DNA of 64,000 bases from an uncultured Actinomycetes bacterium (GTDB taxonomy: Bacteria > Actinomycetota > Thermoleophilia > Gaiellales > JAICJC01), in assembly GCA_963695025.1 (NCBI GenBank), contig CAVOFQ010000003.1, forward strand, positions 1,680,336 to 1,744,335, read 5' to 3'. Below, piece by piece: positions 5,252 through 62,635 of the stretch (positions are counted from its first letter, which is position 1; the number at the start of each line of letters is the position of its first letter). The translations under genes were made by a program, and so were the position numbers. A model generated the notes under the pieces. It was given only the letters and a program-made list of their open reading frames with translations. It searched no databases and was not told where the DNA came from.

Positions 5252-6917
5252 TCACTGGACGACCGCGTGCTGCATTGCCCACAGAGCGGCGGCGGCTCGT
5301 GTCGACGTGCCGATCTTGCCGTAGATGTGCTGGATGTGGTGATCGGCGGTCTTGGGGGAGATGAAGAGCCGATCGGCGATCTGGCGCGTCGTGAGTCCCC
5401 TGGCCGCAAGCCGCAGCACATCGACCTCGCGCCGGGTGAGCCCGCCCGGATGCTGCTGCCGCTTGCCCGAGGGCACTCGCGGCTCACCGTGCCCCGCGGC
5501 CACGAGCACCGCCCGGCTCGCGCGAGGCTCGAGCACGCCCTGCGATTCGAGCTGGCGAAGCTCGGCGGCCGCGCCGTCGGGCGAGAACGGCAGACGGTCT
5601 GCCCGCTCGGTGGTCAGCCCAACGTAGATCTCCGTCGCCGCCAGGACGCACCCCCCGAGATCGTCGGCGTCCGCCCGCACGCGCTTGTGGTACCCGGAGC
5701 CGTCGCACTTCTCGTGGTGTGCGGACGCGACGGGGTTGAGGACGGCCAGAGCCGGTGAGCGGCGCAGCATCTGCTCAGTCAGCAGGGGGTGAAGCTCGAC
5801 CCGGTCGAACTCCGTGCGGGTGAGCGGCCCGGGCTTGTCCCAGATCGAGTTCGGCACGATGGTGGTGCCGAAGTCGTGGACGAGCGCCGCGCGACGCACC
5901 CCGGTGACAGCTTCCTCGTCGAGCCCGAGCACCAGTGCAGCGTCGCCTGCGATCTCTGCGCAGCGACGGCTGTGCCCGCCCATGTACGGCGACTTCAGGT
6001 CGATGAAGTCGGCGGCGACGGTCAAGGCGTCGTCGAACTGCTCGCCGGACAGCGTGCGGTGCGGCTCGGGCTCGAGGGCGAGCACGACGTCCCACGGCTC
6101 GGCCCTGCTGAGCGCATCGAGCCAGTCGCGCCCATGCGCGACGAACAGGTCGGCGAGAGCCGGGTCGTAGGTGCGGTCGCGGCGATCGCGTGCAGCCTCG
6201 ATCGCATGCTCGGGCGAGAACAGGCGGCCGATCGCCTCCATGTCGTGGCTGAGGTGCACGACGCGCATCGCGAGCGGGATCGCGTCCCCCTTGCGCGTGG
6301 GCCGGGTAGCCGTTGCCGTTCCAGCGCTCGAAGGTGAAGCGCAGAGCGTCACGAACGTCGGGGCCGAAGTCGAGGCGCTGCACGAGCATGTCGGCCACCT
6401 CGCAGCCGGACGTGAAGTTGTAGACCGCCCACTCGCGGGCCGTCTCCTGGATCAACCGGACGATCTCTTCGCGCTCCTCCGGGCTTCGGCCGGCGGTCGC
6501 GAAGGCCATGACGTCGCGCATCACCTCCGTGGGATTCGCGGCGTCGTGGACGAGCGTCTGGGCACGGATCGCGATCTCGTCGCCGAAGACAGTGGCGACC
6601 TCATGGGCGTGACCAGTGCAACCGACGTACCGGAGGAGCGCCACCCAGTACGCGGTGTCGCGCAACTCTCGGTCGAACCCCGCGGCGTCGCATATCGATG
6701 CCGCGAGCACACACGACCGAAGTTGCGATTCGAGCGGCTGGCCGAACGCGTTGTCCTGCGCAAGCGCCAGCGTCGCGACGAACTCACTGAGGCGGAGCGG
6801 TGCGTCGAAGATGGGGGGTCCTCCCGATGTATCGGCCCTGACGGCCGAGCAGAATCCTCTCACGTCGCGTGGGAGGTCGCCACGCGAGACCGCCAAGCTC
6901 AGATCAAGGGAGGACAT
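5252..6917 (-). pseudogene. tandem HD-GYP-like domains fused to a LuxR-type HTH regulator; reading frame broken once near 6300
   Basis: Track ORFs 5775..6917 and 5252..6352 are consecutive parts of one protein. The first ends ...FERWNGNGYP; the second continues TRKGDAIPLAMRVVHL, the rest of the HD-GYP signature. The second domain carries HDFG...HHEKCDGSGYH. The C-terminus LTRREVDVLRLAARGLTTRQIADRLFISPKTADHHIQHIYGKIG is LuxR-type. One extra base in the run at 6299..6303 explains the shift. Confidence 0.7.
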
Positions 6918-6918
6918 C

Positions 6919-8430: not shown

Positions 8431-8449
8431 GCCGGCAGCTTCCCTCGAA

Positions 8450-8522
8450 TGGAGCTAGTCGGGCTCGAACCGACGACCTCCACGCTGCCAGCGTGGCGCT
8501 CTCCCAGCTGAGCTATAGCCCC
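8450..8522 (-). tRNA. tRNA-Ala (anticodon GGC)
   Basis: Reverse complement GGGGCTATAGCTCAGCTGGGAGAGCGCCACGCTGGCAGCGTGGAGGTCGTCGGTTCGAGCCCGACTAGCTCCA folds as a cloverleaf. G3:U70 pair present. Anticodon loop is CTGGCAG. Confidence 0.9.
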
Positions 8523-9073
8523 AGATCGGGCCGCAGTATACCGCCGCCGGCCGGTTCGACGGCCATGCCGCGCCCCGCGGCCAGCCGCTCCAGCACCAGA
8601 GCGGTGTCGGCGATGGAGACGCCGGACAGGTGCTGCTCGCGGGCCGCGAAGTCGGCCACGATCTGCCCCAGCGCCGCCGCGTAGGCCGGTTGGTCGCGGT
8701 CGCCGAGGGCCTGCAGCGCCCGGCCGGTGCGCGCGAACGCGTCACCGGCGGCGAGCATCACCTCCACGTCCGGCCGCTCGTCCAGCGTCACCTGGGCAAG
8801 GGCCCGCAGGTAGGCCGAGGCGGGCGTGTCACCGGGCCCGACCTCGGTCTGCGCGCGGCGGGCGATGGCCTCGGCGCCGTCACCGGCCAGGATCGCCATC
8901 TTGAGGGCACCCAGCAGCCGGCCCCAGCTCGACGGCCCCGTCTCGGCGTGCGATGCCAGATAGGCGTCGCGGGCACGCAGGAGCGCCGGGCCGGCGTCCG
9001 TCCTCGCCAGAAGCGCGCGGTAGGCGTCGGCCTCGGCGGCGAGCGCCGCCTCGAGATGGGTGCCCGCGCTCAT
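8513..9073 (-). CDS. hypothetical protein
   Basis: Track ORF 8513..9151. I start at ATG 9073, which overlaps the DUF2203 gene stop (ATGA). The 3' end overlaps tRNA-Ala by 10 nt. No family recognised. Confidence 0.5.
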   Translation of the reverse strand: MSAGTHLEAALAAEADAYRALLARTDAGPALLRARDAYLASHAETGPSSWGRLLGALKMAILAGDGAEAIARRAQTEVGPGDTPASAYLRALAQVTLDERPDVEVMLAAGDAFARTGRALQALGDRDQPAYAAALGQIVADFAAREQHLSGVSIADTALVLERLAAGRGMAVEPAGGGILRPDLGL

Positions 9074-9477
9074 TCCAGCGGCCGGCGCCCGGCGAAGCCG
9101 TCGGCGGGCGAATGCCAGTGGGCGATCCGCGGCTCGCCCACGTGCCAGCACAGAAGTGCCTCCTGGCCGTCCACCTCGGCCGGGAAGTCGATCAGGCCCC
9201 GGTCCATGTCCTTCACCTGCACACCCTGAGCGGTGAACCGGGCGACGATCTCGTTCAGCTCCGCGTGCGAGGCCTCAACGGTCTCGCGCAGCTCGCGCAC
9301 TTCGGGCCGCTCCATGTTGCCGCCGTTGGAGCCGATCGCGATCACGAGCCGCCGCCAGCGCGACTCCAGATCACGGCTGCGGGCGCGGGCCTCGACCATG
9401 CGCTCCGCCAGGGCGCGCAATTCGGTGTCGAGCAGCTCCTGCGCCTCGGCGAGCGTGAATCGGCGCTCCTGCTCCAC
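9070..9477 (-). CDS. DUF2203 domain protein
   Basis: 135 aa. GVQVKDMDRGLIDFPAEVDGQEALLCWHVGEPRIAHWH matches DUF2203 as I remember it. Confidence 0.65.
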   Translation of the reverse strand: MEQERRFTLAEAQELLDTELRALAERMVEARARSRDLESRWRRLVIAIGSNGGNMERPEVRELRETVEASHAELNEIVARFTAQGVQVKDMDRGLIDFPAEVDGQEALLCWHVGEPRIAHWHSPADGFAGRRPLE

Positions 9478-9486
9478 GCGCCCGGG

Positions 9487-9846
9487 CTACCCGGCCGCGT
9501 ACGTCTCGCTCGGCACCTGGCCCCAGAGTGCCTCGAGCCGGTAGAACGCACGCGCCTCGGGCGTGAACACATGCACGACGACGTCGAGGTAGTCGAGCAG
9601 GATCCAATCCCCCTGCCGGTGCCCCTCGATCCGCCGCGTCGACAGCTGCTCGCGCTTCAGCTCCTCGTGGACGTGCTCGGCGATGCCCTGCGTCTGGCGT
9701 GGATTGCGCCCCGAACAGATGACGAAGTAGTCGGTGTAGGTGACCACTCCACGCATGTCGAGGATGACGATCTCGGTGGCGAGCCTATCGGCAGCCAACG
9801 ATGCCGCGCGATGGGCAAGCTGGATGGTCTCTGTCAGGCGCTCCAC
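9487..9846 (-). CDS. rsfS: ribosomal silencing factor RsfS
   Basis: 119 aa. IVILDMRGVVTYTDYFVICSGRNPRQTQGIAEHV...DWILLDYLDVVVHVFTPEARAFYRLEALW. Confidence 0.9.
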   Translation of the reverse strand: MERLTETIQLAHRAASLAADRLATEIVILDMRGVVTYTDYFVICSGRNPRQTQGIAEHVHEELKREQLSTRRIEGHRQGDWILLDYLDVVVHVFTPEARAFYRLEALWGQVPSETYAAG

Positions 9847-9866
9847 TCCATATCGGCGCGATCAGA

Positions 9867-11976
<2,110 letters not shown>

Positions 11977-11987
<11 letters not shown>

Positions 11988-12537
11988 CGCCCGCGTCCTC
12001 CTTCTTGGCCCGTGTGCGCCGCGGCTTCGGCGCCGGTGTCGCTGCGTCGGCCTTCGCCTTCGGCTTGGGCTTCGGCTTGGCCGCCGCCCGGGGCTTCGCC
12101 GGCGCCTTCGGCTTGGCCGCCGCGGGCGCCTTCGGCTTGGCGGCCGGCGTGGGCTTGGCTGCCGGCTTCTCGACGACCGCCTCGACCGGTGCCTCGGGCT
12201 CGGCCTTGCGGGCGGGTGCCCGCTTCGGCTTGGTGGCCCGGCCGATCGACTCGACCGAGATCCGGGTCAGCTCCGAGCGATGGCCGCGCGTCTTCTTGAA
12301 CCCGCGTTTCGGCTTGAACGTGAAGACCTTGATCTTCTCGCCGCGCAGATGCTCGACCACCGCTACCGAGACCGCGCCCTCGAGCTTGGACCGGTCGGTC
12401 ACGACCTCATCGCCGCCGGTCATGAGCACGACGGGCGCGAACGCCTCGCCCGCGGCATGCGGCTGCCGGTCGACCAGAAGCTTCTGCCCCTGCTCGACGC
12501 GATATTGCTTGCCGCCGACCTTAATAACCGCGTACAT
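11977..12537 (-). CDS. rplU: 50S ribosomal protein L21 with a long Ala/Lys/Pro-rich C-terminal extension
   Basis: The L21 core [23 protein letters not shown]...[25 protein letters not shown] is followed by about 85 aa ([13 protein letters not shown]...[33 protein letters not shown]...). Confidence 0.9.
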
Positions 12538-12575
12538 AAGCCGCGGAATGGTACCAGAGGTGGTTGGCCGCTTCC

Positions 12576-15014
12576 CTACCCCCCGAGGAGCCTCCCGAGG
12601 AGGCCACGCTTGGGCTCACTCCCGAGCCGCTCGCCGTCGTTCTGCGGCGCGGGCGCGGGCGCGGACTCGGGCGTCGGCGCGGGGGTCGTCGGAGGTGGTG
12701 GCGGGGCTGCCGGTGCCTGATCGCCCTCCGAGTCAGAGGCGGCCGTGGCCGATGCCGCCGCGCGGCGGGCGGGGGCCCGCCGGCGTGGCCGCGGAGCCGC
12801 GGCGGGGGCCTCCTCCGGGGCCGCACCGTCGCCGTCGTCGGACGGGCGCGTCGCCGCCGGCTCATCGACGGCCGGAGCGGCTCCGTCGCCGTCCGCCGCT
12901 GCCGCCTTCGAACGACCACGGCCGCCACGCTTGCCGCGCCGGCGGCGGCGGTTGGCCGTGGCCTCCTCGCCACCCTCGGCAGCTGCATCCACCACATCGG
13001 GATCGCCGTTCTCGGACGCGGCGGCACCCTCCTCGGTCGCCGGCTGCTCGGCGGCCGCCTCCGCGGTGGCCTTCTCGGCCGCCGGCTTTGCGCGTGACCG
13101 GCGCCGCTGCTTGGGAGCCGCCGCGGTCTCGTCGGCCGCATCCGCGTCCTTCTCCTCGGTTGCCGCGGCGGTCGCGGTCGCCCGCGGCTTGGCCGGGGTC
13201 TTGCGGCGCGAGCGCGGCCGGCGATCCTCGAGCTCCAGCCGCTCCCCCACCTCGCGCTCGAACTCCGGCAGCTCGTAGTCGTCCGGCTCCGGAGGCGTGT
13301 CCATCGCCGTCGGCTTGGCATCCAGCAACGTCGCGTAGGCGGTCGTGCGGGTGCCCCGGTCGATGCGCACCTTGTGCTGCTGGCCGACGTAGCCGATCGC
13401 CCCTCCGACCACCACGGGGTAGCCGCCGTCGAGGCGGGCGACGCCGTCGGTGACGTTGTACATGTGCGGCTCGGAGATGCGCACGGTGAGCTCGTCGTTG
13501 TCGGCCACCGGCACCGCGGATCCGTTGACCTCGGCACGCGTGCCCTCGAGGATCACGTCGATCTCGCTCAGCGGCATCCGCTCGACCGGCTCGAGCGTGA
13601 AGCGCTTGCCGGTCTCGTTCTCGAGCTCGATCAGCTTCGTCCCGCCCGGCCCGACGAGCCCGGACGCGACCCTCGCGTTCAGCCGCACGAGATAGGCGTC
13701 GGAGCCCGAGGCGCGGGCAAGCTTGCGCAGCCGCCGCTCGGCCTCGACCGCCATCGTCTGCTCGCTCAAGACGACGCCCTCGCCGCCGCAGGTCGGACAG
13801 GTGCGGGTGAGGATCTCGCGCACTCCGGCGGTCACGTTCTGGCGCGTCATCTCGACGAGGCCAAGCGGGGAGATCTCAACCAGATAGGTCTTGGTGCGGT
13901 CGTGCTCGAGCTCGGCCTGGAGCACGTTCAGCACCTCGGTGCGGTTCTTGGCCGAGGCCATATCGATGAAGTCGATCACGATGATGCCGCCGATATCGCG
14001 CAGCCGGAGCTGGCGCATCACCTCCCGCGCCGCCTCGATGTTGTTGCGCGTGATCGTGTCCTCGAGCCGCCCGGAGGAGCCGACGAAGCGGCCGGTGTTG
14101 ACGTCGATGATCGTGAACGCCTCGGCGTAGTCGAAGATCAGGTAGCCGCCCGAGGGCAGGTCGACGCGGCGGTTGAGCGTTGACAGGATCGCCTGGTCGA
14201 CGCCGTAGCGCTCGAAGAGGGGCACAGGGTCGGTGTAGAGCTTGATCCGCTCGACGAACTCGGGCTGGGTGGTGCGCACCCAGCCGAGGATGCGCCGGTA
14301 CTGGCGCTCGGAGTCGACCAGAACCTCGTCCACGTTTCGCGCCAGCAGGTCGCGGATGACCTTCAGTGAGAGGTCTGCCTCGGCGTAGACGAGGCTGCCG
14401 GACTTGGCCGGCTTTGCCCGGGCCTCGACCTGGGCCCACATCTTGTGCAGGAAGCGCAGGTCGCGCTCGAGGTCATCGGCGGTCGCGCCGGCGGCCGCGG
14501 TGCGAACGATGATGCCGCCGTCCTCGCGTTCGAGCGACTTGGCGAGCTTGCGCAGGCGCTCGCGCTCGCCGTCGGGCAGCCGCCGCGAGACGCCGGAGCC
14601 CTCGCCGTGCGGCGACAGCACCAGGAACCGGCCGGCGATCGAGAGCTCCATCGTCACCCGCGGGCCCTTGGTGCCCATCGAGTCCTTGACGACCTGTACC
14701 AGCACCTCTTGGCCGGGCTTCAGGAGCTCGTCGATCTTGCGCCTGCGGCGGGTCTTCGAGTCCTGGCCGGGGACGACGACGTCGTCCACGTACAGGAACC
14801 CGTTGCGGGGCAGCCCGAGGTCGACGAACGCCGCCTCCATGCCGCGCAGGACGTTGTCGATCTTGCCCTTGTAGATGTTGCCGGCCAGCGAGCCCTGGCC
14901 GCGGCGCTCGATCAGCGCCTCGACCGTACGGCCTTCCTCGACCACGGCCACCCGCAGCTCGGACAGGTCGACCGAGATCAGGATTGTCTTTTTTGCGTCA
15001 GAAGTCAGTGTCAC
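12576..15014 (-). CDS. rne: ribonuclease E/G family endoribonuclease with disordered Arg/Ala/Pro/Glu-rich C-terminal region
   Basis: 812 aa. S1 domain ([23 protein letters not shown]) and catalytic core ([11 protein letters not shown]...). GTG start overlaps the stop of the upstream gene (GTGA). Confidence 0.9.
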
Positions 15015-15658: not shown

Positions 15659-15711
15659 AGGTCTGTCTCAACTTTCACCATCCAACCAACCGGGGACTGT
15701 CCCCGGTTTGG

Positions 15712-17478: not shown

Positions 17479-17526
17479 AACCGGGATGGTAGACGACCGG
17501 GTGGCGGCGCCAGGGATCCCCCGTTT

Positions 17527-18390: not shown

Positions 18391-18416
18391 GGTCGCGGAT
18401 CCGACCGCGAACGTTC

Positions 18417-23244: not shown

Positions 23245-23250
23245 CGAAAC

Positions 23251-46071: not shown

Positions 46072-46082
46072 AAAGGACTGGA

Positions 46083-46268: not shown

Positions 46269-46326
46269 GCCAAACCGTGGGCGCGCGGGGCGGCCGGGCC
46301 ATGTGATGTTCCGACGGAGGGGATGA

Positions 46327-46692: not shown

Positions 46693-46741
46693 TAGCAGCA
46701 GGTTTCCAGCCTGCCCGAACAAGGGCGAGACAGCGCCGAGC

Positions 46742-46788
46742 GACTTCGAATCTGCCGGTCGTCCGTTCGAATCGGACCGGGCGCGTCG
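46742..46788 (+). repeat. attR-type direct repeat (displaced 3' fragment of tRNA-Arg)
   Basis: Identical to 38230..38276. It lacks the 5' half of the tRNA, so it is not a functional tRNA. Confidence 0.9.
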
Positions 46789-46997
46789 CCTAACCGGGCG
46801 GTTTCCGGCGACCACACATTGGCACGCTTCGTTGTTCTCAACCTGTGAGCCGGGTGCGGGGTGGTGCGGCTGATCGCTTCCTTTTGACGACAAAAATCAT
46901 TCTCTAGGCAACCAAATGTACGATCGCGCGCATGCCACGCCGACCAACCGCAGCCCACTGCATCTGCGCCCACCCGATCGACCCGTTGGCTCGGCGG

Positions 46998-53086: not shown

Positions 53087-54121
53087 ATGTGGAGATGGGT
53101 GTTGCCGGTCGCGGTGGCCGCCGCGCTATTGATCGGATTCTTGGCGAGCCGCAACGGCCCGACCAGTCACGTCGGCGCGCACGCACCTCCCACGACCACC
53201 ACGACGCCCACGGCGCCGGGCCCGCATCTGGACGCGACCTGCGGCAGCCTGACCGGGACGGCGACCGTTCGCCACGTCGTCTGGATCTGGATGGGCGGCC
53301 AGTCCTACAAGCACATCATCGGCAAGGTACGGGAGGCGCCGTACATCAACCAGCTGGCGGGCCAGTGCGGCCTTGCGAGCGCCTACAGCACGATCACCCA
53401 CCCCGCGATCGCAAACGACGTCGGCGTCCTGGCCGGGGATTCCCACGGCCTCGTCCACAACGCCTGCTCGCCATGCATCGTCCCCGGCGCAAGCCTGCTC
53501 ACACAGGTGCCGTCGTGGCGGGCATTCATCGGCGGGATGCCGACGCCGTGCCGCAAGCTCGCCGACGAACGCGATACTCGCGCCTCTCCAACCCGCCGAT
53601 CGTACCTGACCGCTCCCCGGCTGTCCCTCGCTTCGACCTGCCTCTGGGCACACCGACCGGCTGGCCGGCTGGCCCCGCTCCTGACCGCGAACACCATGCC
53701 GGCGTTCACGATGATCGTCCCCGACGGCTGTCACGACACCGGCTTCAACAAGCACTGCGGCGGAGTGAAGAAGCGGGGCGCGTTCATCGCCCGCGGCGAC
53801 ACATGGCTGCGCACCTGGATCCCGGTGCTCACCTCATCGCTCGCCTACCGCTCGGGCTCGATGGTGATCTTCATCACCTGGAACCAGGGCACGCCGGCCA
53901 AGCCGCTCGACATCGCCTGCACCACCGGGACCCCCAGGAACGCGTGCCGGGTGCCGCTGCTGGTCATCTCGCCGTACGTGAAGGCCGGCATCAACGTGAC
54001 GACCCGGTTCAGCCACTACAGCCTGCTTCGGGCGACCGAGAAGCTGCTCGGCATCAAGACCCAGCTGGGCAACGCCGGGCGACCGGCGGCGGGCGATTTG
54101 GTGCAGGCGTTCGGCCTGTGA
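53087..54121 (+). CDS. second phosphoesterase-family (PF04185-like) exported protein; an internal approx. 35-codon stretch appears out of frame
   Basis: Part of track ORF 52940..54121, starting at ATG 53087 (MWRWVLPVAVAAALLIGFLASRNG). VRHVVWIWMGGQSYKHIIG...APYINQLAGQCGLA...MPAFTMIVPDGCHDTG...GDTWLRTWIP...MVIFITWNQG. Between about 53568 and 53670 another frame reads RYSRLSNPPIV...RFDLPLGTPTG, which fits family expectations better than the ORF frame. Confidence 0.6.
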   Translation: MWRWVLPVAVAAALLIGFLASRNGPTSHVGAHAPPTTTTTPTAPGPHLDATCGSLTGTATVRHVVWIWMGGQSYKHIIGKVREAPYINQLAGQCGLASAYSTITHPAIANDVGVLAGDSHGLVHNACSPCIVPGASLLTQVPSWRAFIGGMPTPCRKLADERDTRASPTRRSYLTAPRLSLASTCLWAHRPAGRLAPLLTANTMPAFTMIVPDGCHDTGFNKHCGGVKKRGAFIARGDTWLRTWIPVLTSSLAYRSGSMVIFITWNQGTPAKPLDIACTTGTPRNACRVPLLVISPYVKAGINVTTRFSHYSLLRATEKLLGIKTQLGNAGRPAAGDLVQAFGL

Positions 54122-55376
54122 GCCGGCGAGGGCTGGCAGCCGCCGCCGCGGCGCTGCTCGTCGCCGCCGGATGCGCCGGTGGCGGTGGCCAGAGCGGCGC
54201 ACCACGACAGGGCCGCCGCCTCCCCCGCGCCGGCCGTTCCCACCCCCGCACGGCACCGGCCTGCGCAAGCCGTGGGTCACCACCTGCGGCAGCCAGTTCG
54301 TCGACCAGAATGGCAAGCCGGTGCTCCTGCGCGGCGTCAACATGTCGGTCGGCCAGGCCACGCTCGCCCCCGCCGCGGCGGCCCTCGGCGTGAACTTCGT
54401 TCGCATCCACGTCGGCTGGGATTCGATCGAGCCCCAGCCGCCGTTGCACGGCCGCTACCGGTGGGACACCAATGTCCTCGACCCAGCTCGACCAGGAGGT
54501 CCAGGCGCTCCAGCGCCTGCACGTGAACGTCCTGATCGACTACCACCAGTTCCACTGGTCGCCCTACTTCGCCCAGGCGACATGCAAGGCGGGCAAGACC
54601 GTGTGCCGTGCCAGCGGCGTGCCGGCCTGGTTCTACTCCGGCGGCCGCTTCGCCGCCACGAAGAGCGGCGTGTCGCAGAGCCGAGGCGGCGTTCTGGAGC
54701 AGCCGAGTCGTCACTCTCGCAGGGCTACTACGCCGCATTCGTGAGCATGATGGCGGCCCGCTACGCGCGCTACCCGAACGTCGTCGGATACGAGCTCTTC
54801 AACGAGCCCCACCCCGGCCGGCTGGGCGACACGACCGGTGCGACCGACACGATGCTGCGTTGGCAGGCGGGCATCCGCGCCGCCATCCGCAAGGTCGATC
54901 CGTCCAGGACCGTGTTCATCATGTGCCGCGGCGGCGGCGAGGGCGTCGGCACCGCCAGCCTGGCGCCGTTCGGATCGCTCACGCACCTGGCCCTCGACTG
55001 GCACGACTACTTCAACGGCCTCTCGGGCGGCCTCGACGCGGCCGGGGACAACTGGGTGCCGTCATGGACGGCCACGCACAACCAGACCACCGCGAGCTAC
55101 ACCGGCAGCGAGCAGGCCCAGGCGCGCGTCCTCCAGGTGCCGCTCGAGCGTACGCGCACGTGGGGCATCCCGCTCCTCGTCGGCGAGTGGGGCATCCACA
55201 GCGGCACCCCCGGAGCCGCGGTGTACCAGACGCAGATGCTCGATCTCTTCGCCAAGGACAAGGTCAGCTGGACGCGCTGGGTGCTGACGGGCGGCGGCTT
55301 CGGCCTGCTGTCGACGAACGGCGCGCCCACCGCCGAGGCCGACCAGATCAAGGCCGCGCTGGCCGTCAGCCCCTGA
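54118..55376 (+). pseudogene. glycoside hydrolase family 5 (cellulase-like) lipoprotein, at least four frame disruptions
   Basis: GTG 54118 overlaps the upstream stop (GTGA): VSRRGLAAAAAALLVAAGC (lipobox). Shift near 54197 to ...CGSQFVDQNGKPVLLRGVNM...GVNFVRIHVGWDSIEP. Shift near 54478 to QLDQEVQALQRLHVNVLIDYHQFHWSPYF...GVPAWFY. Shift near 54683 to AEAAFWSS. Shift near 54700 to ...YYAAFVSMMAARYARYPNVVGYELFNEPHPG...LLVGEWGIHSG. Confidence 0.7.
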
Positions 55377-55472: not shown

Positions 55473-57059
55473 TCACCCGTGCGTCGCGGCCGCGGCCCTG
55501 CCGCGCCGCCGCCGGCGCAGCGAGCCCCCCAGAAGCTCCAGCTCGACCCGGTCGCGGAACTTCCACAGGAGCCATGCGTAGCCGGCCGTGCCGACGACGA
55601 GGCAGACGATGAGCGCCGGCACTGTCGTGCCCACGGTGACCCGAAGCGCAAGTCCGAGCACGCCGTAGCAGAGCAGCGCGCTGCCGCTTGCGACCGGGAA
55701 GCCGCGGCCGAACGGGTGCACCTTCAGGAAGGCGCGCACCTCGGCCAGAGGGGCGACGTTGTTGATGACGATGCTCCCGGCCCATGCCACGGCCGCCCCG
55801 GCGATCCCGAAATGCGGGATCAGGAGCAGGCTCAGGCCGACGTTCACCGTCAGCGCCACGATCACGTTGAAGAGGTTCCAGAAGCTGCGCCCGCCCATCA
55901 GGAGCACCATGTCCACGGGCCCGATGCCCGTCGCGACCAGCATCGTGACCGCCAGGATCTCGAGCGACGACGTCCCGGAGACGTACTGGGGCTTGAACAC
56001 GCGCAGCAGCAGCGGGGCGAAGATCGCGAGGCCCAGGTACATCGGCCAGGCCATGAGCACGAGCCAGGCGGTCGCCACCTGGTAGACGTCCATCGCCCGC
56101 TTCCGGGCGCCGCTTGCCAGCAGCTCGGAGAGCTTGGGCCCGATCACCTGGATGATGGCCATGTTGACCACGCTGCCCGCGACGAGGTACCGCGTCGAGG
56201 CGGTGTAGATCGATGCGTGGGCGGTGTCCATCAGCGAGCCCACCATCAGCGTCCCCACCCAGAGCGTTGTCACCTGGAAGACGCCGGTCATCCCCCGCGG
56301 CGCCGTGAACACCCAGAACTCGCGCGCCAGCTCGCGCAACGGCGTCCCCGGCTGGGTCGCCTTCTCGCGCCGCTCGGTGCGGCGCACCAGATGGCCGAGC
56401 CAGAGCAGCGCGACGGCGAACGAGATCCCGATCGGGACGCCCCACGCGACCGCGACGGCGAAGCTGCCGCCGCCGGCCAGCACGGCGACCGCCACCGCGA
56501 GGGTCTGCACCGCCGCCTTGCCGATGCGATCGACGAGCGCGTTGGGGAGCATCGTCCCGAAGCCACGGGTCGCGGCAATGGCCACCGTGTAGGCCGACGA
56601 CAGCGGCACGAACACGGCCAGCACGCGGATGTAGGTGGCGACGGCGTCTGCCGAGGCCTGACGGTGGTTCGTGAAGATCTCGGCCAGAGGGCCGGCGAGG
56701 GCGAAGGAGATCGCCGCGAGCACCACTCCGCCGACGAACGACGGGACGAGGCCGACGCTCAGGCTGCGGCGCACGTCGGCCACCCGGCCGGCGACGCGGT
56801 AGCGCGGGATCATCCGGGTGAGGCCGGTGTCGGCTCCGAGCTCGGCCGTGTTGGACAGGATCAGAAACAGCGCCACCGCCTCGAAGAAGGCGCCCGAGGC
56901 GCTGCGGGTGAGCGCGCGCGTCACCACCACCACCATGGCGAACTGGAGCAGGCCGTTTGCGAGCGCGCCGATGAAGTTGAGCGAGCCGCCGCGGGCGACC
57001 ATGCGCAGGTCGTCGGTGCGCTCCTGGCCGGCCGTGGCCGGCGACTCCACCGCCGTCAC
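55473..57059 (-). CDS. polysaccharide biosynthesis protein / oligosaccharide flippase (Wzx, MOP superfamily)
   Basis: Track ORF 55473..57341. I start at GTG 57059, which overlaps the stop of the sulfotransferase gene (GTGA). About 12-14 hydrophobic segments. GGSLNFIGALANGLLQFAMVVVVTRAL. Confidence 0.8.
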   Translation of the reverse strand: MTAVESPATAGQERTDDLRMVARGGSLNFIGALANGLLQFAMVVVVTRALTRSASGAFFEAVALFLILSNTAELGADTGLTRMIPRYRVAGRVADVRRSLSVGLVPSFVGGVVLAAISFALAGPLAEIFTNHRQASADAVATYIRVLAVFVPLSSAYTVAIAATRGFGTMLPNALVDRIGKAAVQTLAVAVAVLAGGGSFAVAVAWGVPIGISFAVALLWLGHLVRRTERREKATQPGTPLRELAREFWVFTAPRGMTGVFQVTTLWVGTLMVGSLMDTAHASIYTASTRYLVAGSVVNMAIIQVIGPKLSELLASGARKRAMDVYQVATAWLVLMAWPMYLGLAIFAPLLLRVFKPQYVSGTSSLEILAVTMLVATGIGPVDMVLLMGGRSFWNLFNVIVALTVNVGLSLLLIPHFGIAGAAVAWAGSIVINNVAPLAEVRAFLKVHPFGRGFPVASGSALLCYGVLGLALRVTVGTTVPALIVCLVVGTAGYAWLLWKFRDRVELELLGGSLRRRRRGRAAAATHG

Positions 57060-57979
57060 GGCTCGACCTGCTCGTGCTCGGCCTCCGGCCAGCCCATCCT
57101 CATGCCCACGAACGCCTCCAGCCTCCGGTTGGGCGCGGCGAAGTGCGCCCGCAGCCGTGCCCGCGTCTCGTCCGCCATGCCCGTGGCGCGTCGGGCATTG
57201 TATGCCCGGAACTCCGGCGGGCTCTCGGGATCGGGCAGGCCGAGGAAGCGCAGGACCTCGGCATAGCCGGCCTGGGGATCGGCGAAGAACCGCTCGTAAC
57301 AGATCACCAGGGTGCGCTCGGCCGGGAAGTGCTCGCGCCATGCCGCGAGCTGGTCGGCGTACTCGCCGCGCTTGACGTAGGCGTGGTGCTGGTAGGCGCG
57401 GCTGTCGTAGGCGGGATCGGCCAGCATCCGCTCGCGCTCACCCTCGATGCGCGCCGGCTCGAGGTCGAGCGCGGCCTCGAAGGAGGCGGCGTCCTCGAAC
57501 CCGCGGGCGTACTCCTGCTGGTAGTGGGAGTAGGCCCGCTCGACCGGGTCGCGGAGCATCACGATCACGCGCGCGCCAGGCACCGCCGCCGCCGCCCGCG
57601 CCGGCCCGTGGGGGTGGAAGAGGTAGTAGGGGCTGCCCTCGCCCGTGACCGCCGGCGGGCCGGCGGAGCGCTCGCGCCGCCGCCGCTCCGCCTCCGTCGG
57701 GAAGTGTGCCCGGTACCACCGCAGGCTGCGGTCGGCGTGCTTGTCGAAGTAGTGCACGCCCTTGCTCGGCACGGCGGGCATCACCTGGGGATGGGCGGCC
57801 AGGTAGTTGTACAGCGACGTCGTACCGCTGCGCTGGGCGCCGATGATGAGGAAGTCCGGCAGCGGCCGGTGCGTGGCGGTGAGCATGCGCCAGCCGATCA
57901 GGGTCTCGCGCGCAGCGGTGATCACCGGTGCGGGCAGCCGCGAGTAGTTGTCGTTGGCCGCGCCGCGCTCGCGGGGCAT
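57056..57979 (-). CDS. sulfotransferase family protein 1
   Basis: Part of track ORF 57056..58516, starting at ATG 57979 (ATGA overlap). PDFLIIGAQRSGTTSLYNYL is the 5'-PSB PAPS motif and VIVMLRDPVERAYSHY is the 3'-PB motif. Confidence 0.85.
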   Translation of the reverse strand: MPRERGAANDNYSRLPAPVITAARETLIGWRMLTATHRPLPDFLIIGAQRSGTTSLYNYLAAHPQVMPAVPSKGVHYFDKHADRSLRWYRAHFPTEAERRRRERSAGPPAVTGEGSPYYLFHPHGPARAAAAVPGARVIVMLRDPVERAYSHYQQEYARGFEDAASFEAALDLEPARIEGERERMLADPAYDSRAYQHHAYVKRGEYADQLAAWREHFPAERTLVICYERFFADPQAGYAEVLRFLGLPDPESPPEFRAYNARRATGMADETRARLRAHFAAPNRRLEAFVGMRMGWPEAEHEQVEP

Positions 57980-58785
57980 CAGCCGGCCAGCTCCAGCGGC
58001 GTCAGGAGCACCGGCTGCTTGAGGCTGTAGCCGAACCGGTTCACCCGGTCTTCGAGCGTCTCCACGGCGGTGGCGATGTCGGTACCGGTCCCGGGGGCGC
58101 GCCGGGCCAGCGTCCAGCGGCGGAAATAGCCGTCGTTGATGCCGCCCCTCACCTCGAGGCCGCTCGGCAGCGGCTCGACACCGGCAAACCGGAACACTTC
58201 GCCAAGGCGGCGGTCGGGGTCGAAGACGAACTCCTCGTAGCGCATCACCAGGAGTTTCTCGATGTGCGACGCGTCGTCCATCAGGAGCTCGTGGCAGCGC
58301 AGCCAGTGCTCGATCAGCGACGTGTAGGACATCCGCTTCCACGTCCGCCGTGCGCGCCCGAACTGGCGCGTCGCGCCGGCCACAGCGATCGGGTGGCGGA
58401 TCAGGACGACCATGCACGAGCCGGGGAAGAGCGCCTGCAGGAACCGCGTCCGGATCAGGTTGGGCGGCGACTTCTCGACCAGCACCGGCCGCGAGGCGTC
58501 CCAGTGGCGGCCCCACTCCTCGAACAGCCGCCGGCGGCTCTCGTCGTTCACGAGCGGGGAGTCCTCGGTCAGATGGGCGCTGGGGTCGAACCCGAACCGG
58601 CCCGGCCCGCCGTGCTCGTTCGCAGGCCGGTACACGGTCTGCAGGTGCTGGCCCTCATCCTCGGTCGCACCGGTCTCGGAGAAGCCGCTCACCTGCGGAT
58701 GCTCGGCCAGACAGCGGCCGAGCAGGGTCGTGCCACTGCGGTGCAGACCGCCGATGAACACGAACGTGTGCTCATGCCAATCCAT
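57979..58785 (-). CDS. sulfotransferase family protein 2
   Basis: 268 aa. FVFIGGLHRSGTTLLGRCL (5'-PSB-like) and VVLIRHPIAV. Confidence 0.75.
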   Translation of the reverse strand: MDWHEHTFVFIGGLHRSGTTLLGRCLAEHPQVSGFSETGATEDEGQHLQTVYRPANEHGGPGRFGFDPSAHLTEDSPLVNDESRRRLFEEWGRHWDASRPVLVEKSPPNLIRTRFLQALFPGSCMVVLIRHPIAVAGATRQFGRARRTWKRMSYTSLIEHWLRCHELLMDDASHIEKLLVMRYEEFVFDPDRRLGEVFRFAGVEPLPSGLEVRGGINDGYFRRWTLARRAPGTGTDIATAVETLEDRVNRFGYSLKQPVLLTPLELAG

Positions 58786-58789
58786 CTGT

Positions 58790-59029
58790 TCAAGCCGGGA
58801 CGAGCGCCCGTCGCCGAGGTCGGGCAGGCGACGCCTCGCCCACCGGTTCCGGTGCCTCTGCCGTCATCATCGCACGGTAGGTGATCGCAGCGGCCACCAG
58901 CATGATCGGCAGGCGCTCGGTGACGTCGTAGTAGGGCACCTGCAGCATGGCGACCAGCAGCCAGCCCCCCGGCAGCACCCAGCCCGAGGGCAGGTTCTGG
59001 TTGATCCGCGCGGCGGGGGCTCTAAGCAT
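58790..59029 (-). CDS. small hydrophobic hypothetical protein
   Basis: 79-aa track ORF. 8-nt overlap with the upstream sulfotransferase stop. G/C-rich third positions. WVLPGGWLLVAMLQ...LPIMLVAAAITY. Confidence 0.35.
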   Translation of the reverse strand: MLRAPAARINQNLPSGWVLPGGWLLVAMLQVPYYDVTERLPIMLVAAAITYRAMMTAEAPEPVGEASPARPRRRALVPA

Positions 59030-59966
59030 GGTGCCGGAGATAGCCGTAGCGAAGCAGCAGCGGCCAGGTCACCAGCACCACGAGGGAGCGTGTCTTTCGG
59101 GCCATGCCGGTGCGCCAGGCCTCGTCGGGCCGCACCTGCTGGCGGCCGTGGGCAAAGCGCATCGGGTTTCCGCGCACGCTGTGCTGCCCCGAGACGTGCA
59201 CCGAGTCGGCCCCGATCGCCGAGAGGTCGTGCCGGCCCGGCTCGCCCATCGCCGCGAACATCCGCTCGAGCTCGCCGCGCGGGTCGGCTGCGAGCGACTC
59301 GTAGCGCATCCGCACCGTCGGCGCACCGACGCGCCGCAGGAACTCGAAGGCCAGGTTGCACTGCATCCAGCGCACACCCGCCGAGACCGGCGAGAACTCC
59401 TGGAAGTAGGCCTCGCCGGCGATCACCTCGGGGCGCGCGACCCGCTTGGCCCACGAGTACACGACGCCGCGGCTGTCGCGCACCAGGTGCACCACGCGCA
59501 GGGCGATCCCCGAGCCCGCCGCAGCGCGCAGGAAGTACGCGTACGGCGGGTTCTTGGTCGAATCGACCACGACCTGCGCTCCCGACACGGTCAGGATGCC
59601 GCGATAGAGCTGCGCGGTCAGGTCGGCGTAGCGGCGCACGGCCTGTGCGTGGCCGGACGCGAGCCGGCCCAGCGCCAGAAGCGGGATCCTGCGGTGGGCG
59701 AGGACCGTGGACTCGAGCCGCAGGATCTCGTCGGTGTCCACCTTGTCCCAGCCGCCGAAGGCCGCATCCCCGACCGCCGCCCAGAATGGGCAGTCGGCGA
59801 ACTGCAGGCCGCATCCGCACAGCTCGTTCGCGCCGGGCCCGGCCTGCCACACGTAGCGCAGCTCACCGACCGACACGAACCCCGGCACCTCGCCCAGAAC
59901 GTGCGCGAGCAGGGTCGAACCGCTCCGCCCCCAGCCGCCGATGTAGAGCACCGGAACGTCGGTCAT
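59022..59966 (-). CDS. sulfotransferase family protein 3
   Basis: 314 aa. VLYIGGWGRSGSTLLAHVL (5'-PSB-like) and VVHLVRDSRGVVYSW (3'-PB-like). ATGA overlap with the upstream gene. Confidence 0.8.
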   Translation of the reverse strand: MTDVPVLYIGGWGRSGSTLLAHVLGEVPGFVSVGELRYVWQAGPGANELCGCGLQFADCPFWAAVGDAAFGGWDKVDTDEILRLESTVLAHRRIPLLALGRLASGHAQAVRRYADLTAQLYRGILTVSGAQVVVDSTKNPPYAYFLRAAAGSGIALRVVHLVRDSRGVVYSWAKRVARPEVIAGEAYFQEFSPVSAGVRWMQCNLAFEFLRRVGAPTVRMRYESLAADPRGELERMFAAMGEPGRHDLSAIGADSVHVSGQHSVRGNPMRFAHGRQQVRPDEAWRTGMARKTRSLVVLVTWPLLLRYGYLRHHA

Positions 59967-60583
59967 GCACGCCGCCGCGAGAACGGCGCCGACCGCGCGA
60001 CGCCCCCGTGCGAGCCGTTCGTGTGGGAGACGAGCTCGTCAACCAGCTGCTCGAACATGGCCACCGCGTTCGCAGGCCCGGCGCCGGCGGGCGGCAGCTT
60101 CGCCTCGCTGCCGTCGAGGCCGAGAGCCGCGTCAAGGCACGTGCGCAGCTCCTCCTCGGACTGGGCCAGGACGATCGCGCCCTCTCCCGCGATGCGCTCG
60201 GTGAACGAGCACTGATGGTCGTCCACGTGCTCGCCGTAGCGCTTGCGCCGGGGCACGACGATCGGCCGCTTGCCGAGCGTCGCGGCCAGCATGATCGTCC
60301 CCGGGCCGCCGTGGCACACCACGACCGCGGCCTCGCGCACCATCGCCTCCATCTCGGCATGGCCGAGGTACTGGCGGTGTTCGGCAAGACGCGGCACGGC
60401 CGACGTGCCGGTCTGCACGAAGCAACGGGCGACGTCGCAGCCGCCCGCCTCGAGCCAGGCGTCCATCCAGCGGGACAGGCGGTCGAAGGGGTGGTAGTCG
60501 GTACCGACGGAGGCGAAGACGAGTGGCAGAGGGTCGCTCAGAACAGGCCGCCGATCACGCGTGCCCCGGGGTAGAACCGGCAC
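59963..60583 (-). CDS. PssE/Cps14G-type glycosyltransferase subunit (Alg13-like, Glyco_tran_28_C); start uncertain
   Basis: Part of track ORF 59963..60766. LPLVFASVGTDYHPFDRLSRWMD...VVCHGGPGTIMLAATLGKRPIVVPRRKRYGEHVDDHQ. GTG 60583 is the nearest canonical start. Confidence 0.75.
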   Translation of the reverse strand: MPVLPRGTRDRRPVLSDPLPLVFASVGTDYHPFDRLSRWMDAWLEAGGCDVARCFVQTGTSAVPRLAEHRQYLGHAEMEAMVREAAVVVCHGGPGTIMLAATLGKRPIVVPRRKRYGEHVDDHQCSFTERIAGEGAIVLAQSEEELRTCLDAALGLDGSEAKLPPAGAGPANAVAMFEQLVDELVSHTNGSHGGVARSAPFSRRRA

Positions 60584-60987
60584 TGCTCCTCCCACTGCAC
60601 CAGAAAGAGGCTCGAGAACGGCCGGCAGAGACGGCCGGTCAGCGTGGGTGAGTCGATCCGGTCGTACACCTCGAGGTACACCGTGGGGATACGCAGGAGA
60701 CGGGCGACGATGAAGAACGGGAACGCCACGGCGGCACCGTCCGAGACGACCACGTCGGGCCGCCACCGTGGCAGCATGCGAACGGCCAGAAGAAAGTTCC
60801 GCACCGCGTTACGGATGTTGCGCGTGGTCGGGTAGTACGCCCACGTGACGCGTTCGTCCTGCAGGAGCGACCGGCTGTCGGGCAGGTCGAACGTGACCCA
60901 CCTGCGGTCGTGCTTCGTCCACCACGGCTTGAGTTGGTGCAGCTGGATCAGGTGGCCGCCCGATGAGCAGACCAGCAGGACTCTCAC
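60538..60987 (-). CDS. PssD/Cps14F-type glycosyltransferase subunit (Alg14-like)
   Basis: Part of track ORF 60538..61128, starting at GTG 60987 (GTGA overlap with the kinase stop). VRVLLVCSSGGHLIQLHQL...VVSDGAAVAFPFFIVARLLRIPTVYLEVYDRIDSPTLTGRL. Confidence 0.8.
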   Translation of the reverse strand: MRVLLVCSSGGHLIQLHQLKPWWTKHDRRWVTFDLPDSRSLLQDERVTWAYYPTTRNIRNAVRNFLLAVRMLPRWRPDVVVSDGAAVAFPFFIVARLLRIPTVYLEVYDRIDSPTLTGRLCRPFSSLFLVQWEEQCRFYPGARVIGGLF

Positions 60988-62635
60988 AGCAGTTCGGTTT
61001 CTCGTGTCTGTCCAGGCTGCGGGACCGAGTCTGGCTGGACGTGGGACGTGCCCACGTAGCCGCCGTACTCCTGCACCTCGTCGGCGGCGCCGCCGACGAA
61101 CACGAACCCAAGCCGCGGTGCGGCGCACGCCTCGAGGGCGCGGCCGAGTGCGACGAGCTGCGGACGGCTGGCGAGCCGTGCCCGTGCGACCACGACCACC
61201 GCGTCCACCTTCGTGCCGAGCACCATGGCGTCGGTCACCGGCAGCATCGGCGGCGCGTCCACCAGGACGACGTCGGCGCGCGTGCGCAGCTCACGGAGGA
61301 GCTCGGTCATCGCCCGGCTGTCGAGCAGCTCCGCAGCATCGCCCGGGATCGGGCCGGCCGGCAGCACCTCGAGCAGGCCGGCACCGCCGCCGGAGCCGTT
61401 CGAGCCGGACTCGACGGCCTGCTCGCGGCTGACATCGACGATCGTCAGGGCATCGCCGAGCTGGCTGTGGCCCGAAAGGATGTCGCTCACACCCATGCGG
61501 TCGTCCAGTCCGAAGAATCCACCCAGGGCCGGCCGGCGCATATTGGCGTCGACCACGACCACGTGCTGGCCGGCGCGCGTCAGCGCAACCGCCAGGTTCG
61601 CGACGGTGGTCGAGATGCCCTCGTCATCCGAGGCGCTGGTGAACATGATCACCTTCATGCCGCGCCGCAGCGTCGAGGACAGGTTCAGCTTGAGGATGCG
61701 GAAGGCCTCGGCCGTCGGCATCTGCGCTCCGCCCTGCGGAGACATCAGCACCACGGCCTGATCTCGGAGCGCACGCGGCCGCGACGGGATGCTGGCCAGG
61801 AGCGGCAGGCGCAGGCGCCGGCCGACCTCGTCCACCGTGCGGATGCGGGTGTCGAGCAGATCCTGCAGGAAGGCCAGGATCACGCCGAGGATCAGTCCGA
61901 GGACGAGCCCGATGGCGGCGTTGCGGCTGGTCTTGGGCTGCGTCTGGTTGGCCGACTGCGCGACGCGGGCGGTTCAGCTGGAGGCCCGAGTTCGTGATCT
62001 GAGCCACCTTCTTGGTGAGAATGCCGTTGTCGGTCGTGATCTGGTCCGTGAGCTGGTGCGCCTTGGCCGCCGTGAACGGCGGCGTCGTGTGATTGCTCAC
62101 GGCTTCGTTGTAGGGGATGAGCTCGGTCGTCGCGTTCGCGATCTGTGTCCGCAGGGCGACGATCGAGTTGTGGAGCTGCGTCTGGTCAATCCTGTTCGAG
62201 TATGCGCCGATGATCGTTGCCCACGCGTTGGCGAGCTGCTGGGCGACCACCGGGCTCGGGTCGGTGACGGTGAAGTCGATCGCATCGACGGCGGCGTCGG
62301 GCGTCACCGTCGTCTCGCCAGGAGCTGCGCCGGGGAGATGCCCGTGAGGTGGGACTGGGAGATGATCGACCTTCGCGCCCGGCGAGGGTCGCGAGCAGCG
62401 GAGCGTGCGTGCCCGACCACGTGTTGCCGCTCGGGTTCTTGGACGACGACGACGACGCCGACGACGTCGTGTTGACCAGCTGGGAGCTCGCCGAATACAG
62501 CTTCTGCTGGCGCTCCGAGAAGCCGAACGCGGCCGCCGTGACCATCACCGTGACCAGGAGCGCAATCCACTTGCGCCTCCACACCACACCGACGTAGTCG
62601 CTCAGCGAAACCGACTCATACCATCCGTTTTCCAC
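60984..62635 (-). pseudogene. polysaccharide co-polymerase / BY-tyrosine autokinase (Wzc-like), three frame disruptions
   Basis: GTG 62635 after AGAGGA: VENGWYESVSLSDYVGVVWRRKWIALLVTVMVTAAAFGFS...LLATLAG. Shift near 62375: SIISQSHLTGISPAQLL. Shift near 62320: TTVTPDAAVDAIDFTVTDPSPVVAQQLANAWATII...GLQLN. Shift near 61970: ARVAQSANQTQPKTSRNAAIGLVLGLILGVILAFLQDLLD..., followed by the kinase domain (Walker A-like FTSASDDEGISTT, VVVVDANMRRP, VLVDAPPMLPVTD). Confidence 0.75.

Follow-up and report, generated by a model that had tools for sequence, protein, structure and literature searches.

The 64,000-nt window analyzed here, a stretch of contig CAVOFQ010000003.1 from an uncultured actinomycete, contains about 25 frame breaks, and its housekeeping genes are almost entirely spared. 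This pattern could have been due to relaxed selection and decay of accessory functions. Alternatively, the breaks might be assembly artefacts specific to strain-variable regions. Both options had been offered by the initial annotation of the window, and the pattern itself held up when we compared the sequence with relatives and homologues. We therefore asked which of the breaks are mutations and which are errors in the sequence.

Distribution of the frame breaks

Neither a GC3 frame plot nor a Viterbi model with frameshift states could tell frameshifted fragments from operon neighbours, and both were dropped; homologue comparisons were used instead to place the breaks (Table 1). By this means, segments 3-542, 575-1087, and 1072-1332, which had been considered as frameshift fragments, were recognized as three separate genes, as in relative L183.

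Table 1. Coordinates of frame breaks and associated features in the window. Positions are those of the window; L numbers denote contigs of relatives.
Feature	Position	Strand	Description
HD-GYP/LuxR regulator, +1	6293	-	Frame switch at 6294-6300; base absent from L185
Housekeeping block	8449..38284	-	Near gap-free short-read alignments; full-length Pfam matches; essentially no frame-breaking indels. Contains rsfS, nadD, obg, rpmA, rplU, rne, radical SAM gene, rodA, mrdA, mreDCB, uppP, maf, ndk, folC, valS, clpXP, tig, Na/H exchanger, ArsR/ArsP, tRNAs
folC, +1	27246	-	CC to CCC on coding strand; base absent from L004 (98.9% identical)
Genomic island at tRNA-Arg	38226..46788	+	~50-bp direct repeats 38226-38276 and 46739-46788
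Amidase, +1 frame junction	41831..41859	+	Pfam Amidase 1-305 in one frame, 371-443 in the next
TadG-like 2	45814..45874	+	+1 in C5 run 45814-45818; -1 in CCC run near 45872
Integrase remnant	46328..46789	+	Four single-base indels relative to L167 and L176; adjoins right-hand att repeat
Phosphoesterase 1, +1	47325..47330	+	Gene split into 92-aa and ~359-aa fragments
TadG-vWA, four +1	50675, 50989, 51257, 51753	+	All absent from L193 (short-read) and L192
Phosphoesterase 2, six +1	53565..53662	+	Relative to L179 and L192; net +6 nt, frame restored
GH5 cellulase, two -1 and four +1	54200..54704	+	L179 and L192 agree at all six sites
EPS genes without frame breaks	55485..61900	-	Flippase, three sulfotransferases, Alg13/Alg14-like glycosyltransferase pair, Wzc kinase domain
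Wzy, in-frame 1,086-bp deletion	junction 58960	-	Wzy residues 23-384 removed
Wzc-like tyrosine kinase	61967..62381	-	Three frame junctions at ~62370-62381, 62317, and 61971

Within the 29.8-kb housekeeping block, comparison with short-read contigs of close relatives revealed one frame-breaking indel, located in folC. Contig L184 (97.4% identical) aligned to 8449-20772 with 0 gaps, L004 to 16225-28897 with the folC indel alone in coding sequence, and L175 (98.8-99.1%) to 28503-38284 with one gap, which is intergenic. The core genes are thus as uninterrupted as the initial annotation had described them. The folC insertion swaps out the last ~47 residues of a normally essential protein. Five short-read relatives encode an intact 377-aa FolC, and the frameshifted 363-aa product was found solely on the source contig. 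The initial annotation had already argued from folC that at least some of the breaks are errors.

Elsewhere, indels are frequent. Of 22 single-nucleotide coding indels, 21 fall in three stretches of variable sequence totaling 6.6 kb and one in the 29.8 kb of core (binomial p = 5e-15); HD-GYP, the amidase, TadG-like 2, and Wzc carry further breaks beyond those 21. The indel rate is ~0.03 per kb in the housekeeping block and the conserved part of the EPS locus, versus ~3 per kb in the variable stretches. Insertions outnumber deletions 18 to 4, in line with the initial annotation's statement that most events are +1. Its per-gene tallies were recovered exactly for HD-GYP/LuxR, folC, the amidase, and phosphoesterase 1 (one each), TadG-like 2 (two), Wzc (three), and TadG-vWA (four). 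For the integrase remnant, phosphoesterase 2, and GH5, the disruption was real in the sequence and the counts (two, two, and four) were too low: we located four, six, and six events, respectively. A separately listed "92-aa gene" probably corresponds either to the amidase C terminus (41844-42119) or to the first fragment of phosphoesterase 1, from its N terminus (47121-47399), in which case one break was counted twice.

Two of the affected regions are islands next to tRNA genes. The HD-GYP insertion lies inside an island (5199-8448) that adjoins a tRNA-Ala gene and is missing from L183 and L188. The island at tRNA-Arg is bordered by repeats of the tRNA 3' end, carries the integrase remnant next to the right-hand repeat, and drops in G+C to 63-66% from ~43 kb to its right-hand end; the site holds other cargo in L167 and L176 and no island in L192. 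For the amidase, PDB amidases could be aligned to the first frame as far as about residue 375, and tblastn placed the C terminus in frame 3. What is present of APH is a truncated remnant, beginning directly after the stop codon of the MBL gene. In TadG-like 2, the compensating pair of indels scrambles 18 residues: the 327-aa homologue P0400 (85% identical) aligns end to end except at residues 245-262, and the alternative frame, PLAALIPVVQQAAGQGTKG, agrees with P0400. The integrase indels (-1 at 46389, +1 at 46435, -1 at 46529, and +1 at 46616) affect a gene that is only a 94-aa Phage_integrase fragment in the relatives as well.

The Tad/phosphoesterase/GH5 block is affected as well. Phosphoesterase 1 is uninterrupted in L176 (97.7% identical, short-read), and tblastn recovered it in two pieces, with residues 1-141 read in frame 3 and residues 140-412 in frame 1. 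A 92-aa fragment of this gene in L192 was considered as a shared break and rejected, as it results from indels of L192 itself near the site (1 nt missing at 47324 and one added at 47346). When metagenome and genome collections were searched with phosphoesterase 1, only relatives at 58-67% identity came back, with no synteny, and tblastn of the ORFs from their loci was informative only for the amidase and phosphoesterase 1. Once repaired, TadG-vWA matches the intact 446-aa P0280 along its whole length (100%), at 93% identity. Phosphoesterase 2, which tblastn had matched in a single frame, was at first regarded as intact; this was withdrawn after residue-level protein alignment revealed a scrambled patch of ~35 residues, confined to positions ~160-195. 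The bin 53600-53699 within this gene has 24 mismatches per 100 nt, compared with ~10 elsewhere. GH5 (-1 at 54200 and 54221; +1 at 54232, 54482, 54675, and 54698) passes from frame 3 to 1 and back to 3 by tblastn, with residues 125-203 readable only in the other frame; in this out-of-frame stretch, the conserved peptide is still encoded in the true frame.

The EPS locus contains both clean and broken genes. All three Wzc junctions lie within the hypervariable periplasmic domain, and the intact 553-aa proteins P0245 and P0248 align to the gene in frames -1, -2, and -3 in succession. An equal-length 299-aa Wzc fragment in L182 was rejected as a shared real frameshift when DNA alignment showed L182 to be error-ridden itself, at other positions. 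The flippase and sulfotransferases are unbroken, as had been reported. No coding indel relative to L179 was found over 55485-59992, for which the rate in the variable block gives P = 6e-7, and beyond 59992 the genes have single-frame, full-length tblastn matches to L181 proteins. Nucleotide identity to relatives is 88-90% for the disrupted genes versus 91-93% for the clean EPS genes, a modest gap that only partly accounts for the sharp boundary at 55.4 kb. The Wzy deletion has an identical junction against L179, L181, and L182 and is also carried by L192; it is a real, inactivating lesion.

Privacy, spectrum, and selection

If the breaks had been inherited, relatives would be expected to share them. 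No relative that spans the site of a checked indel has that indel. The indels in folC, phosphoesterase 1, TadG-vWA, phosphoesterase 2, GH5, and HD-GYP are absent from L004, L176, L193, L179, L192, and L185, and the first five of these genes are intact in short-read contigs from relatives 88-99% identical. Even L192, the closest relative over 50.4-61.4 kb, has none of the checked TadG-vWA, phosphoesterase 2, or GH5 indels despite the common Wzy deletion. Since these comparisons are with other strains (88-99% identical) and not with this genome itself, real mutations that arose in a very recent burst may be compatible with them.

The spectrum of events can be compared with that of sibling assemblies. 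In the window, 8 of the 18 insertions adjoin an identical base and 10 do not extend a base run; the longest run at any indel site is C5, and no recurrent motif at the insertion sites was apparent by eye. As siblings we took ENA contigs named "contig_N", scored against short-read references and, for L001, inside core genes. L001 has 42 insertions and 7 deletions, with 36 of the 42 insertions not adjoining an identical base, and L192 has 21 insertions and 4 deletions over its EPS, GH5, and phosphoesterase 2 genes. The insertion-to-deletion ratio is similar in the window and L001 (Fisher p = 0.73), and insertions lie mostly outside base runs in the window, L001, and L192. The non-run fraction is lower in the window (10/18) than in L001 (36/42; p = 0.02), which counts against reading the events as errors. 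The events are also clustered, with six +1 insertions within 100 nt in phosphoesterase 2, three indels within 35 nt in GH5, and the compensating +1/-1 pair in TadG-like 2, an arrangement that is implausible as mutation.

The initial annotation had reasoned that random sequencing error should strike housekeeping genes too. Its premise fails because consensus error in metagenome assemblies is not uniform: between L185 and the window we counted 2 indels in 7.3 kb of core and 22 in a 3.2-kb island, 17 of the latter being insertions in L185. L185 thus has a nearly clean core and a dirty island, whereas in a second sibling, L001, the core genes are noisy throughout.

We then considered whether the broken genes bear marks of decay. 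After removal of the indel columns, the checked genes contain zero in-frame stops, and the repaired genes are collinear over their full length with intact homologues. Their dN/dS values (0.13-0.34) overlap those of intact neighbours (0.07-0.39), and dS is about equal among the genes compared with L179 or L193. Individual values are 0.128 for TadG-vWA, 0.28 for GH5, 0.34 for phosphoesterase 2, and 0.07 for the flippase. This comparison, which the initial annotation had proposed, speaks against its decay option: TadG-vWA has the low value given despite four frameshifts, and no stops accompany them. Large deletion or truncation was found only for Wzy, the integrase remnant, and the APH fragment, and for none of the genes with single-base events.

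Probable consensus error and competing explanations

These results make it very probable that the frames were broken by single-base consensus errors left in a long-read-only metagenome-assembled genome (MAG), most of them spurious insertions. The artefact option is favored by the private indels, the sibling-like spectrum, the clustering, and the purifying selection, and decay is disfavored for the single-base events. Many genomes in the collection, and the sibling contigs, have names in the style of the MFD long-read catalogue, which is Nanopore-only and was assembled with Flye followed by one Medaka polish (PMC12313526). The present assembly was probably also made from Nanopore reads with metaFlye and one Medaka polish, a technology we infer. 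R10.4 assemblies need ~40-fold coverage to be near-finished (PMC9262707). Errors would be uneven if consensus quality tracks local read support. Where co-occurring strains are near-identical, as in the housekeeping block and the conserved EPS genes, the consensus would be well supported and clean. Strain-specific or divergent sequence, which here means the tRNA-linked islands, the hypervariable Wzc domain, and the Tad/phosphoesterase/GH5 block, would draw fewer or conflicting reads and keep its errors. Local read depth or strain mixture would thus be the driver of the concentration of errors. Some features nearby are genuine, namely the tRNA-linked islands, the Wzy deletion, and what remains of the integrase and APH genes.

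With the Wzy deletion as one real inactivating lesion in the EPS locus, relaxed selection on Wzc and GH5 would be biologically coherent. A minority of the breaks, notably in these two genes, could be real. This would be a soil Thermoleophilia lineage starting to dismantle a sulfated-EPS locus after loss of Wzy, in which co-polymerase and glycanase genes fail before the flippase and sulfotransferases. We consider this unlikely. Quite unlikely, too, is genuine pseudogenization at large, in which the frameshifts are real and the strain is shedding its Tad pilus, exopolysaccharide, and secreted hydrolases under relaxed selection. The Wzy deletion, common to two assemblies, and the integrase and APH remnants fit such a process, as do the accessory nature of the hit genes, their location in or beside tRNA-linked islands, and dN/dS values for GH5 and phosphoesterase 2 somewhat above that of the flippase. 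Yet L192 shares the deletion and has none of the checked indels, nonsense mutations are absent, TadG-vWA appears constrained, and the six insertions in phosphoesterase 2 restore the frame. More than half of the insertions are not of the slippage type, their 18:4 excess matches the error spectrum of the siblings, the flippase, three sulfotransferases, and both glycosyltransferase halves of the operon are untouched, and folC is also hit.

The artefact explanation also has a second form, in which the proximate cause is a chimeric consensus of at least two co-assembled strains: depth would have been adequate and the polisher would have merged divergent alleles, so that the indels mark haplotype switches. 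Several strains at 91-99% identity occur in related samples, and a single assembly, ERZ25039475, includes both L001 and L192, which are related contigs. The dirty patches fall in the most divergent segments (50% amino acid identity in the Wzc periplasmic domain and 70% in GH5), and mismatches spike in the phosphoesterase 2 patch. Outside that patch, however, mismatch density around the indels is ordinary, and the TadG-vWA insertions are isolated, with no local rise in divergence; we regard this variant as very unlikely. Programmed or phase-variable frameshifting at surface-structure contingency loci is barely credible: surface and pilus genes are among those hit and some of the breaks, though few, are in short runs of C or G (45814-45818 and 27246), but long homopolymer or repeat tracts are absent at the sites, insertions fall mostly outside base runs, single genes carry several events, and the cytoplasmic enzymes FolC and amidase are also hit.

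Under residual consensus error, nothing biologically unusual is left to explain; the pattern is ordinary and its value mainly cautionary. Consensus errors in long-read-only MAGs can gather in the strain-specific part of the genome while core genes seem perfect. Core-marker checks (CheckM-type completeness and coding density) then pass, and accessory, island, and surface genes are split or mis-called as pseudogenes. Pangenome, pseudogene, and "genome decay" analyses of such catalogues would be biased toward apparent decay.

Comparison with known systems

The region from 38276 to 46788 resembles known tRNA-linked genomic islands in its tRNA-Arg 3'-end repeats, integrase remnant, lower G+C, and cargo swapped in relatives. 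Such islands account for the strain variability of the region and not for the frameshifts themselves. Reductive decay with pseudogene accumulation is known, for example, from Mycobacterium leprae and host-restricted Salmonella. The window is like these in having disrupted accessory genes beside intact housekeeping genes, the Wzy deletion, and gene remnants. It is unlike them in that there are no nonsense mutations or IS insertions, the nearest relative lacks the disruptions, purifying selection is visible, and neither the clustering nor the spectrum of the indels is that of mutation.

The closer likeness is to the indel errors of Nanopore-only assemblies, which truncate or split gene calls and whose effect is measured with the IDEEL test (Sereika et al. 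2022, PMC9262707): single-nucleotide ORF breaks that are absent from short-read assemblies of relatives, stochastic between assemblies, and dependent on read support. The textbook case consists of length errors in long homopolymers throughout a genome. In the window, by contrast, the insertions lie mostly outside base runs and the breaks are confined to strain-variable stretches, next to ~30 kb of almost perfect core.

Distribution of the frame breaks

A gene map of the window, whose G+C content is approximately 70%, was built from codon-usage segmentation and Pfam; homologues point to an affiliation with the Thermoleophilia (Gaiellales or Solirubrobacterales). The contig to which the window belongs is 2,117,769 nt long and is available from NCBI and ENA. 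Relatives were gathered via exact-protein look-ups and homologue searches. They comprised short-read (JGI) contigs with 88-99% identity (L002-L006, L167-L179, L183, L184, L188-L191, and L193) and long-read-style ENA contigs named "contig_N" (L001, L180-L182, L185, and L192).

Layout of the window (positions within the window)
Feature	Position	Strand	Remarks
Sigma/anti-sigma cluster, TfoX, DUF899	1-5.1 kb		
Small island: HD-GYP/LuxR regulator, periplasmic binding protein (Peripla_BP_6)	5199-8448		Adjoins tRNA-Ala (8449-8523)
Housekeeping block (core), 30 kb	8.4-38.3 kb		rsfS-nadD-obg-rpmA-rplU-rne ... rodA-mrdA-mreDCB-uppP ... ndk-folC-valS-clpXP-tig; closed by a tRNA-Leu/His/Arg cluster
tRNA-Arg island, ~8.5 kb	38276-46788		~50-bp direct repeats of tRNA-Arg 3' end at 38226-38276 and 46739-46788
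Variable region, lower G+C	38.3-55.4 kb		MBL, APH fragment, amidase, Tad/Flp genes, two phosphoesterases, TadG-vWA, GH5
Exopolysaccharide (EPS) operon	55.5-62.7 kb		Flippase, three sulfotransferases, Alg13/Alg14-like glycosyltransferase pair, Wzc-like kinase
Wzy remnant ORF	~58793-59026	minus	1,086-bp deletion junction at 58960

The initial annotation held that housekeeping genes avoid frame breaks, and alignments to short-read relatives agree. L184 aligns over 8449-20772 with no gaps in 12.3 kb, and L175 over 28503-38284 with a single, intergenic gap. Against L004 (98.9% identity; 16225-28897), the sole coding difference of indel type is an extra base at 27246 in folC, the one indel that had been claimed there. 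The core thus contains one frame-breaking coding indel in 29.8 kb. Its location in folC, a normally essential gene, is an additional point for consensus error; an exact look-up among 15 billion proteins found no other copy of the frameshifted product.

Elsewhere, we recovered the predicted single +1 in the HD-GYP/LuxR gene (6293, versus L185), the amidase (41831-41859), and phosphoesterase 1 (47325-47330), as well as four +1 insertions in TadG-vWA, a +1/-1 pair scrambling 18 residues in TadG-like 2, and three frame junctions in the Wzc-like kinase. The integrase remnant, phosphoesterase 2, and GH5 are indeed disrupted, but by four, six, and six single-base events rather than two, two, and four. 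A "92-aa gene" listed separately probably represents a piece of either the amidase or phosphoesterase 1. When the comparison is limited to short-read references, the variable stretches, 6.6 kb in total, contain 21 of the 22 1-nt indels in coding sequence and the 29.8-kb core contains the other (p = 5e-15), and the EPS genes beside the variable block have none in 4.5 kb (P = 6e-7 at the variable-block rate). The concentration of frame breaks in variable sequence is therefore a real pattern, beyond chance.

Two further features of the core were observed. The RNase E/G homologue (12807-14990) has a TRAM domain (Pfam E = 7.5e-7) after its catalytic and thioredoxin-like domains, a match also recorded, faintly, in relatives. 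Approximately 180 nt between mreC and a mreD-like gene (22089-22267) are missing in L002, L003, L005, and L006; in L004, the closest relative there, the spacer is about as long and includes a small cluster of intergenic indels (22158-22168).

Origin of the single-base indels

The pattern had been attributed either to genuine decay of accessory genes or to an assembly artefact of strain-variable regions. The evidence favors the artefact and speaks against decay. All relatives covering a checked indel site lack that indel. L192, the closest relative over 50.4-61.4 kb (~98% identity with gaps ignored), lacks every indel that the window has in TadG-vWA, phosphoesterase 2, and GH5 despite sharing the window's Wzy deletion, which argues against decay. 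The window's spectrum comprises 18 insertions and 4 deletions, and in 10 of the insertions the added base is unlike both of its neighbours (e.g., GAT-C-TTT, TAC-T-CTG, AAC-G-ACC), a pattern that is not slippage. Core genes of L001 show 42 insertions and 7 deletions in 21 kb relative to short-read references, with 36 of the insertions outside base runs; indels inside core genes of sibling long-read contigs can only be attributed to error. The insertion-to-deletion ratio does not differ between the window and L001 (p = 0.73), and L192 has 21 insertions and 4 deletions over its EPS, GH5, and phosphoesterase 2 genes.

The indels are also clustered: the six phosphoesterase 2 insertions lie within ~100 nt, adding a net two codons, three others fall inside 35 nt, and one gene has a compensating pair. 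Such clustering is implausible for independent mutations. Once repaired, the broken genes still look functional, judging from their sequences. Removing indel columns leaves no in-frame stops in them, and an intact 446-aa protein matches the repaired TadG-vWA from end to end at 93% identity. The out-of-frame stretch of GH5 still encodes a conserved peptide in the true frame. The dN/dS comparison suggested in the initial annotation gave no decay signal: TadG-vWA has a value of 0.128 despite four frameshifts, versus 0.07-0.39 for intact neighbours, with dS about equal among those genes for which L179 and L193 served as references.

L185, an independent sibling assembly, repeats the contrast between a clean core and a dirty island: relative to the window, it has 2 indel differences over 7.3 kb of core sequence and 22 in the 3.2-kb tRNA-Ala island, 17 of the latter being insertions in L185. 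L180 (3376-4977) and L181 (3337-4977), near-identical long-read assemblies (67 mismatches and 5 single-base indels in 21.6 kb), show the same type of artefact in the same gene independently: Wzc is split into 69- and 371-aa pieces in L180, and L181 encodes it unbroken at 546 aa. Private indels, a non-mutational spectrum, clustering, live genes, and replication in L185 together indicate that the window's frame breaks are very probably consensus errors rather than mutations.

Island turnover and gene loss

Decay is a tempting explanation because real losses lie nearby. The Wzy_C polymerase gene has a clean in-frame 1,086-bp deletion that removes residues 23-384 relative to L179, L181, and L182; its presence in both the window and the independent assembly L192 shows that the lesion is real and specific to the lineage. 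In the same operon, the genes for the flippase, the three sulfotransferases, and the two halves of the glycosyltransferase are intact. The APH gene has been reduced to a truncated piece. The tRNA-Arg island, which carries MBL, the APH fragment, amidase, Tad-like genes, Flp pilin, and the integrase remnant, is absent from L192; the same site holds TIR and PAS-HD genes in L167 and Dirigent and DUF4386 genes in L176. The tRNA-Ala island is present in L185 and absent from L183 and L188. These features show ordinary island turnover with some real gene loss, and they leave the single-base events unexplained. We consider it improbable that genuine decay produced the frame breaks; their pattern is no biological feature.

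Beside the right-hand att repeat, an 88-bp stretch (46694-46781) is 98.9% identical to L176 5304-5391, inverted. In the EPS operon (55476-60987), three sulfotransferase genes adjoin a Wzx-type flippase and a split Alg13/Alg14-like glycosyltransferase, an arrangement kept in L179, L181, and L182; this gene content suggests a sulfated polysaccharide as the product. Periplasmic Wzc residues ~90-225 (61972-62372) form a hypervariable cassette with 35-50% identity to relatives, compared with 81-92% for the N-terminal segment and kinase domain.

Proposed mechanism

Strains of the window's species are numerous across related samples (91-99% identity), and two related contigs occur within one assembly; mixed strains as the direct source of the frame breaks, a variant of the artefact explanation, are more improbable still than decay. 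For consensus error, stretches near-identical among strains would pool all strains' reads and polish cleanly, and strain-only or strongly divergent stretches would receive fewer or conflicting reads, so that errors could persist. Several observations fit this mechanism. The dirty stretches are those that vary between relatives, both tRNA islands being missing or replaced in some, and in L180 and L181 only ~5.6 kb separates the tRNA cluster from phosphoesterase 2. Amino acid identity to relatives is lowest in dirty genes (Wzc periplasmic domain, 50%; GH5, 70%; phosphoesterase 2, 79%) compared with clean parts (Wzc kinase domain, 91%; flippase, 96%; sulfotransferases, 91-95%). The sharp boundary at 55.4 kb is the mechanism's weak point, as the nucleotide divergence step there is modest.

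The naming of the sibling contigs, and of many genomes in the collection, suggests a source of the Microflora Danica long-read type, a Nanopore-only catalogue assembled with metaFlye and given one Medaka polish (PMC12313526). Assemblies of this kind require ~40-fold coverage for near-finished quality (PMC9262707). The window serves as a warning that long-read-only MAGs may have accessory genes that are selectively corrupted while their core genes seem perfect.
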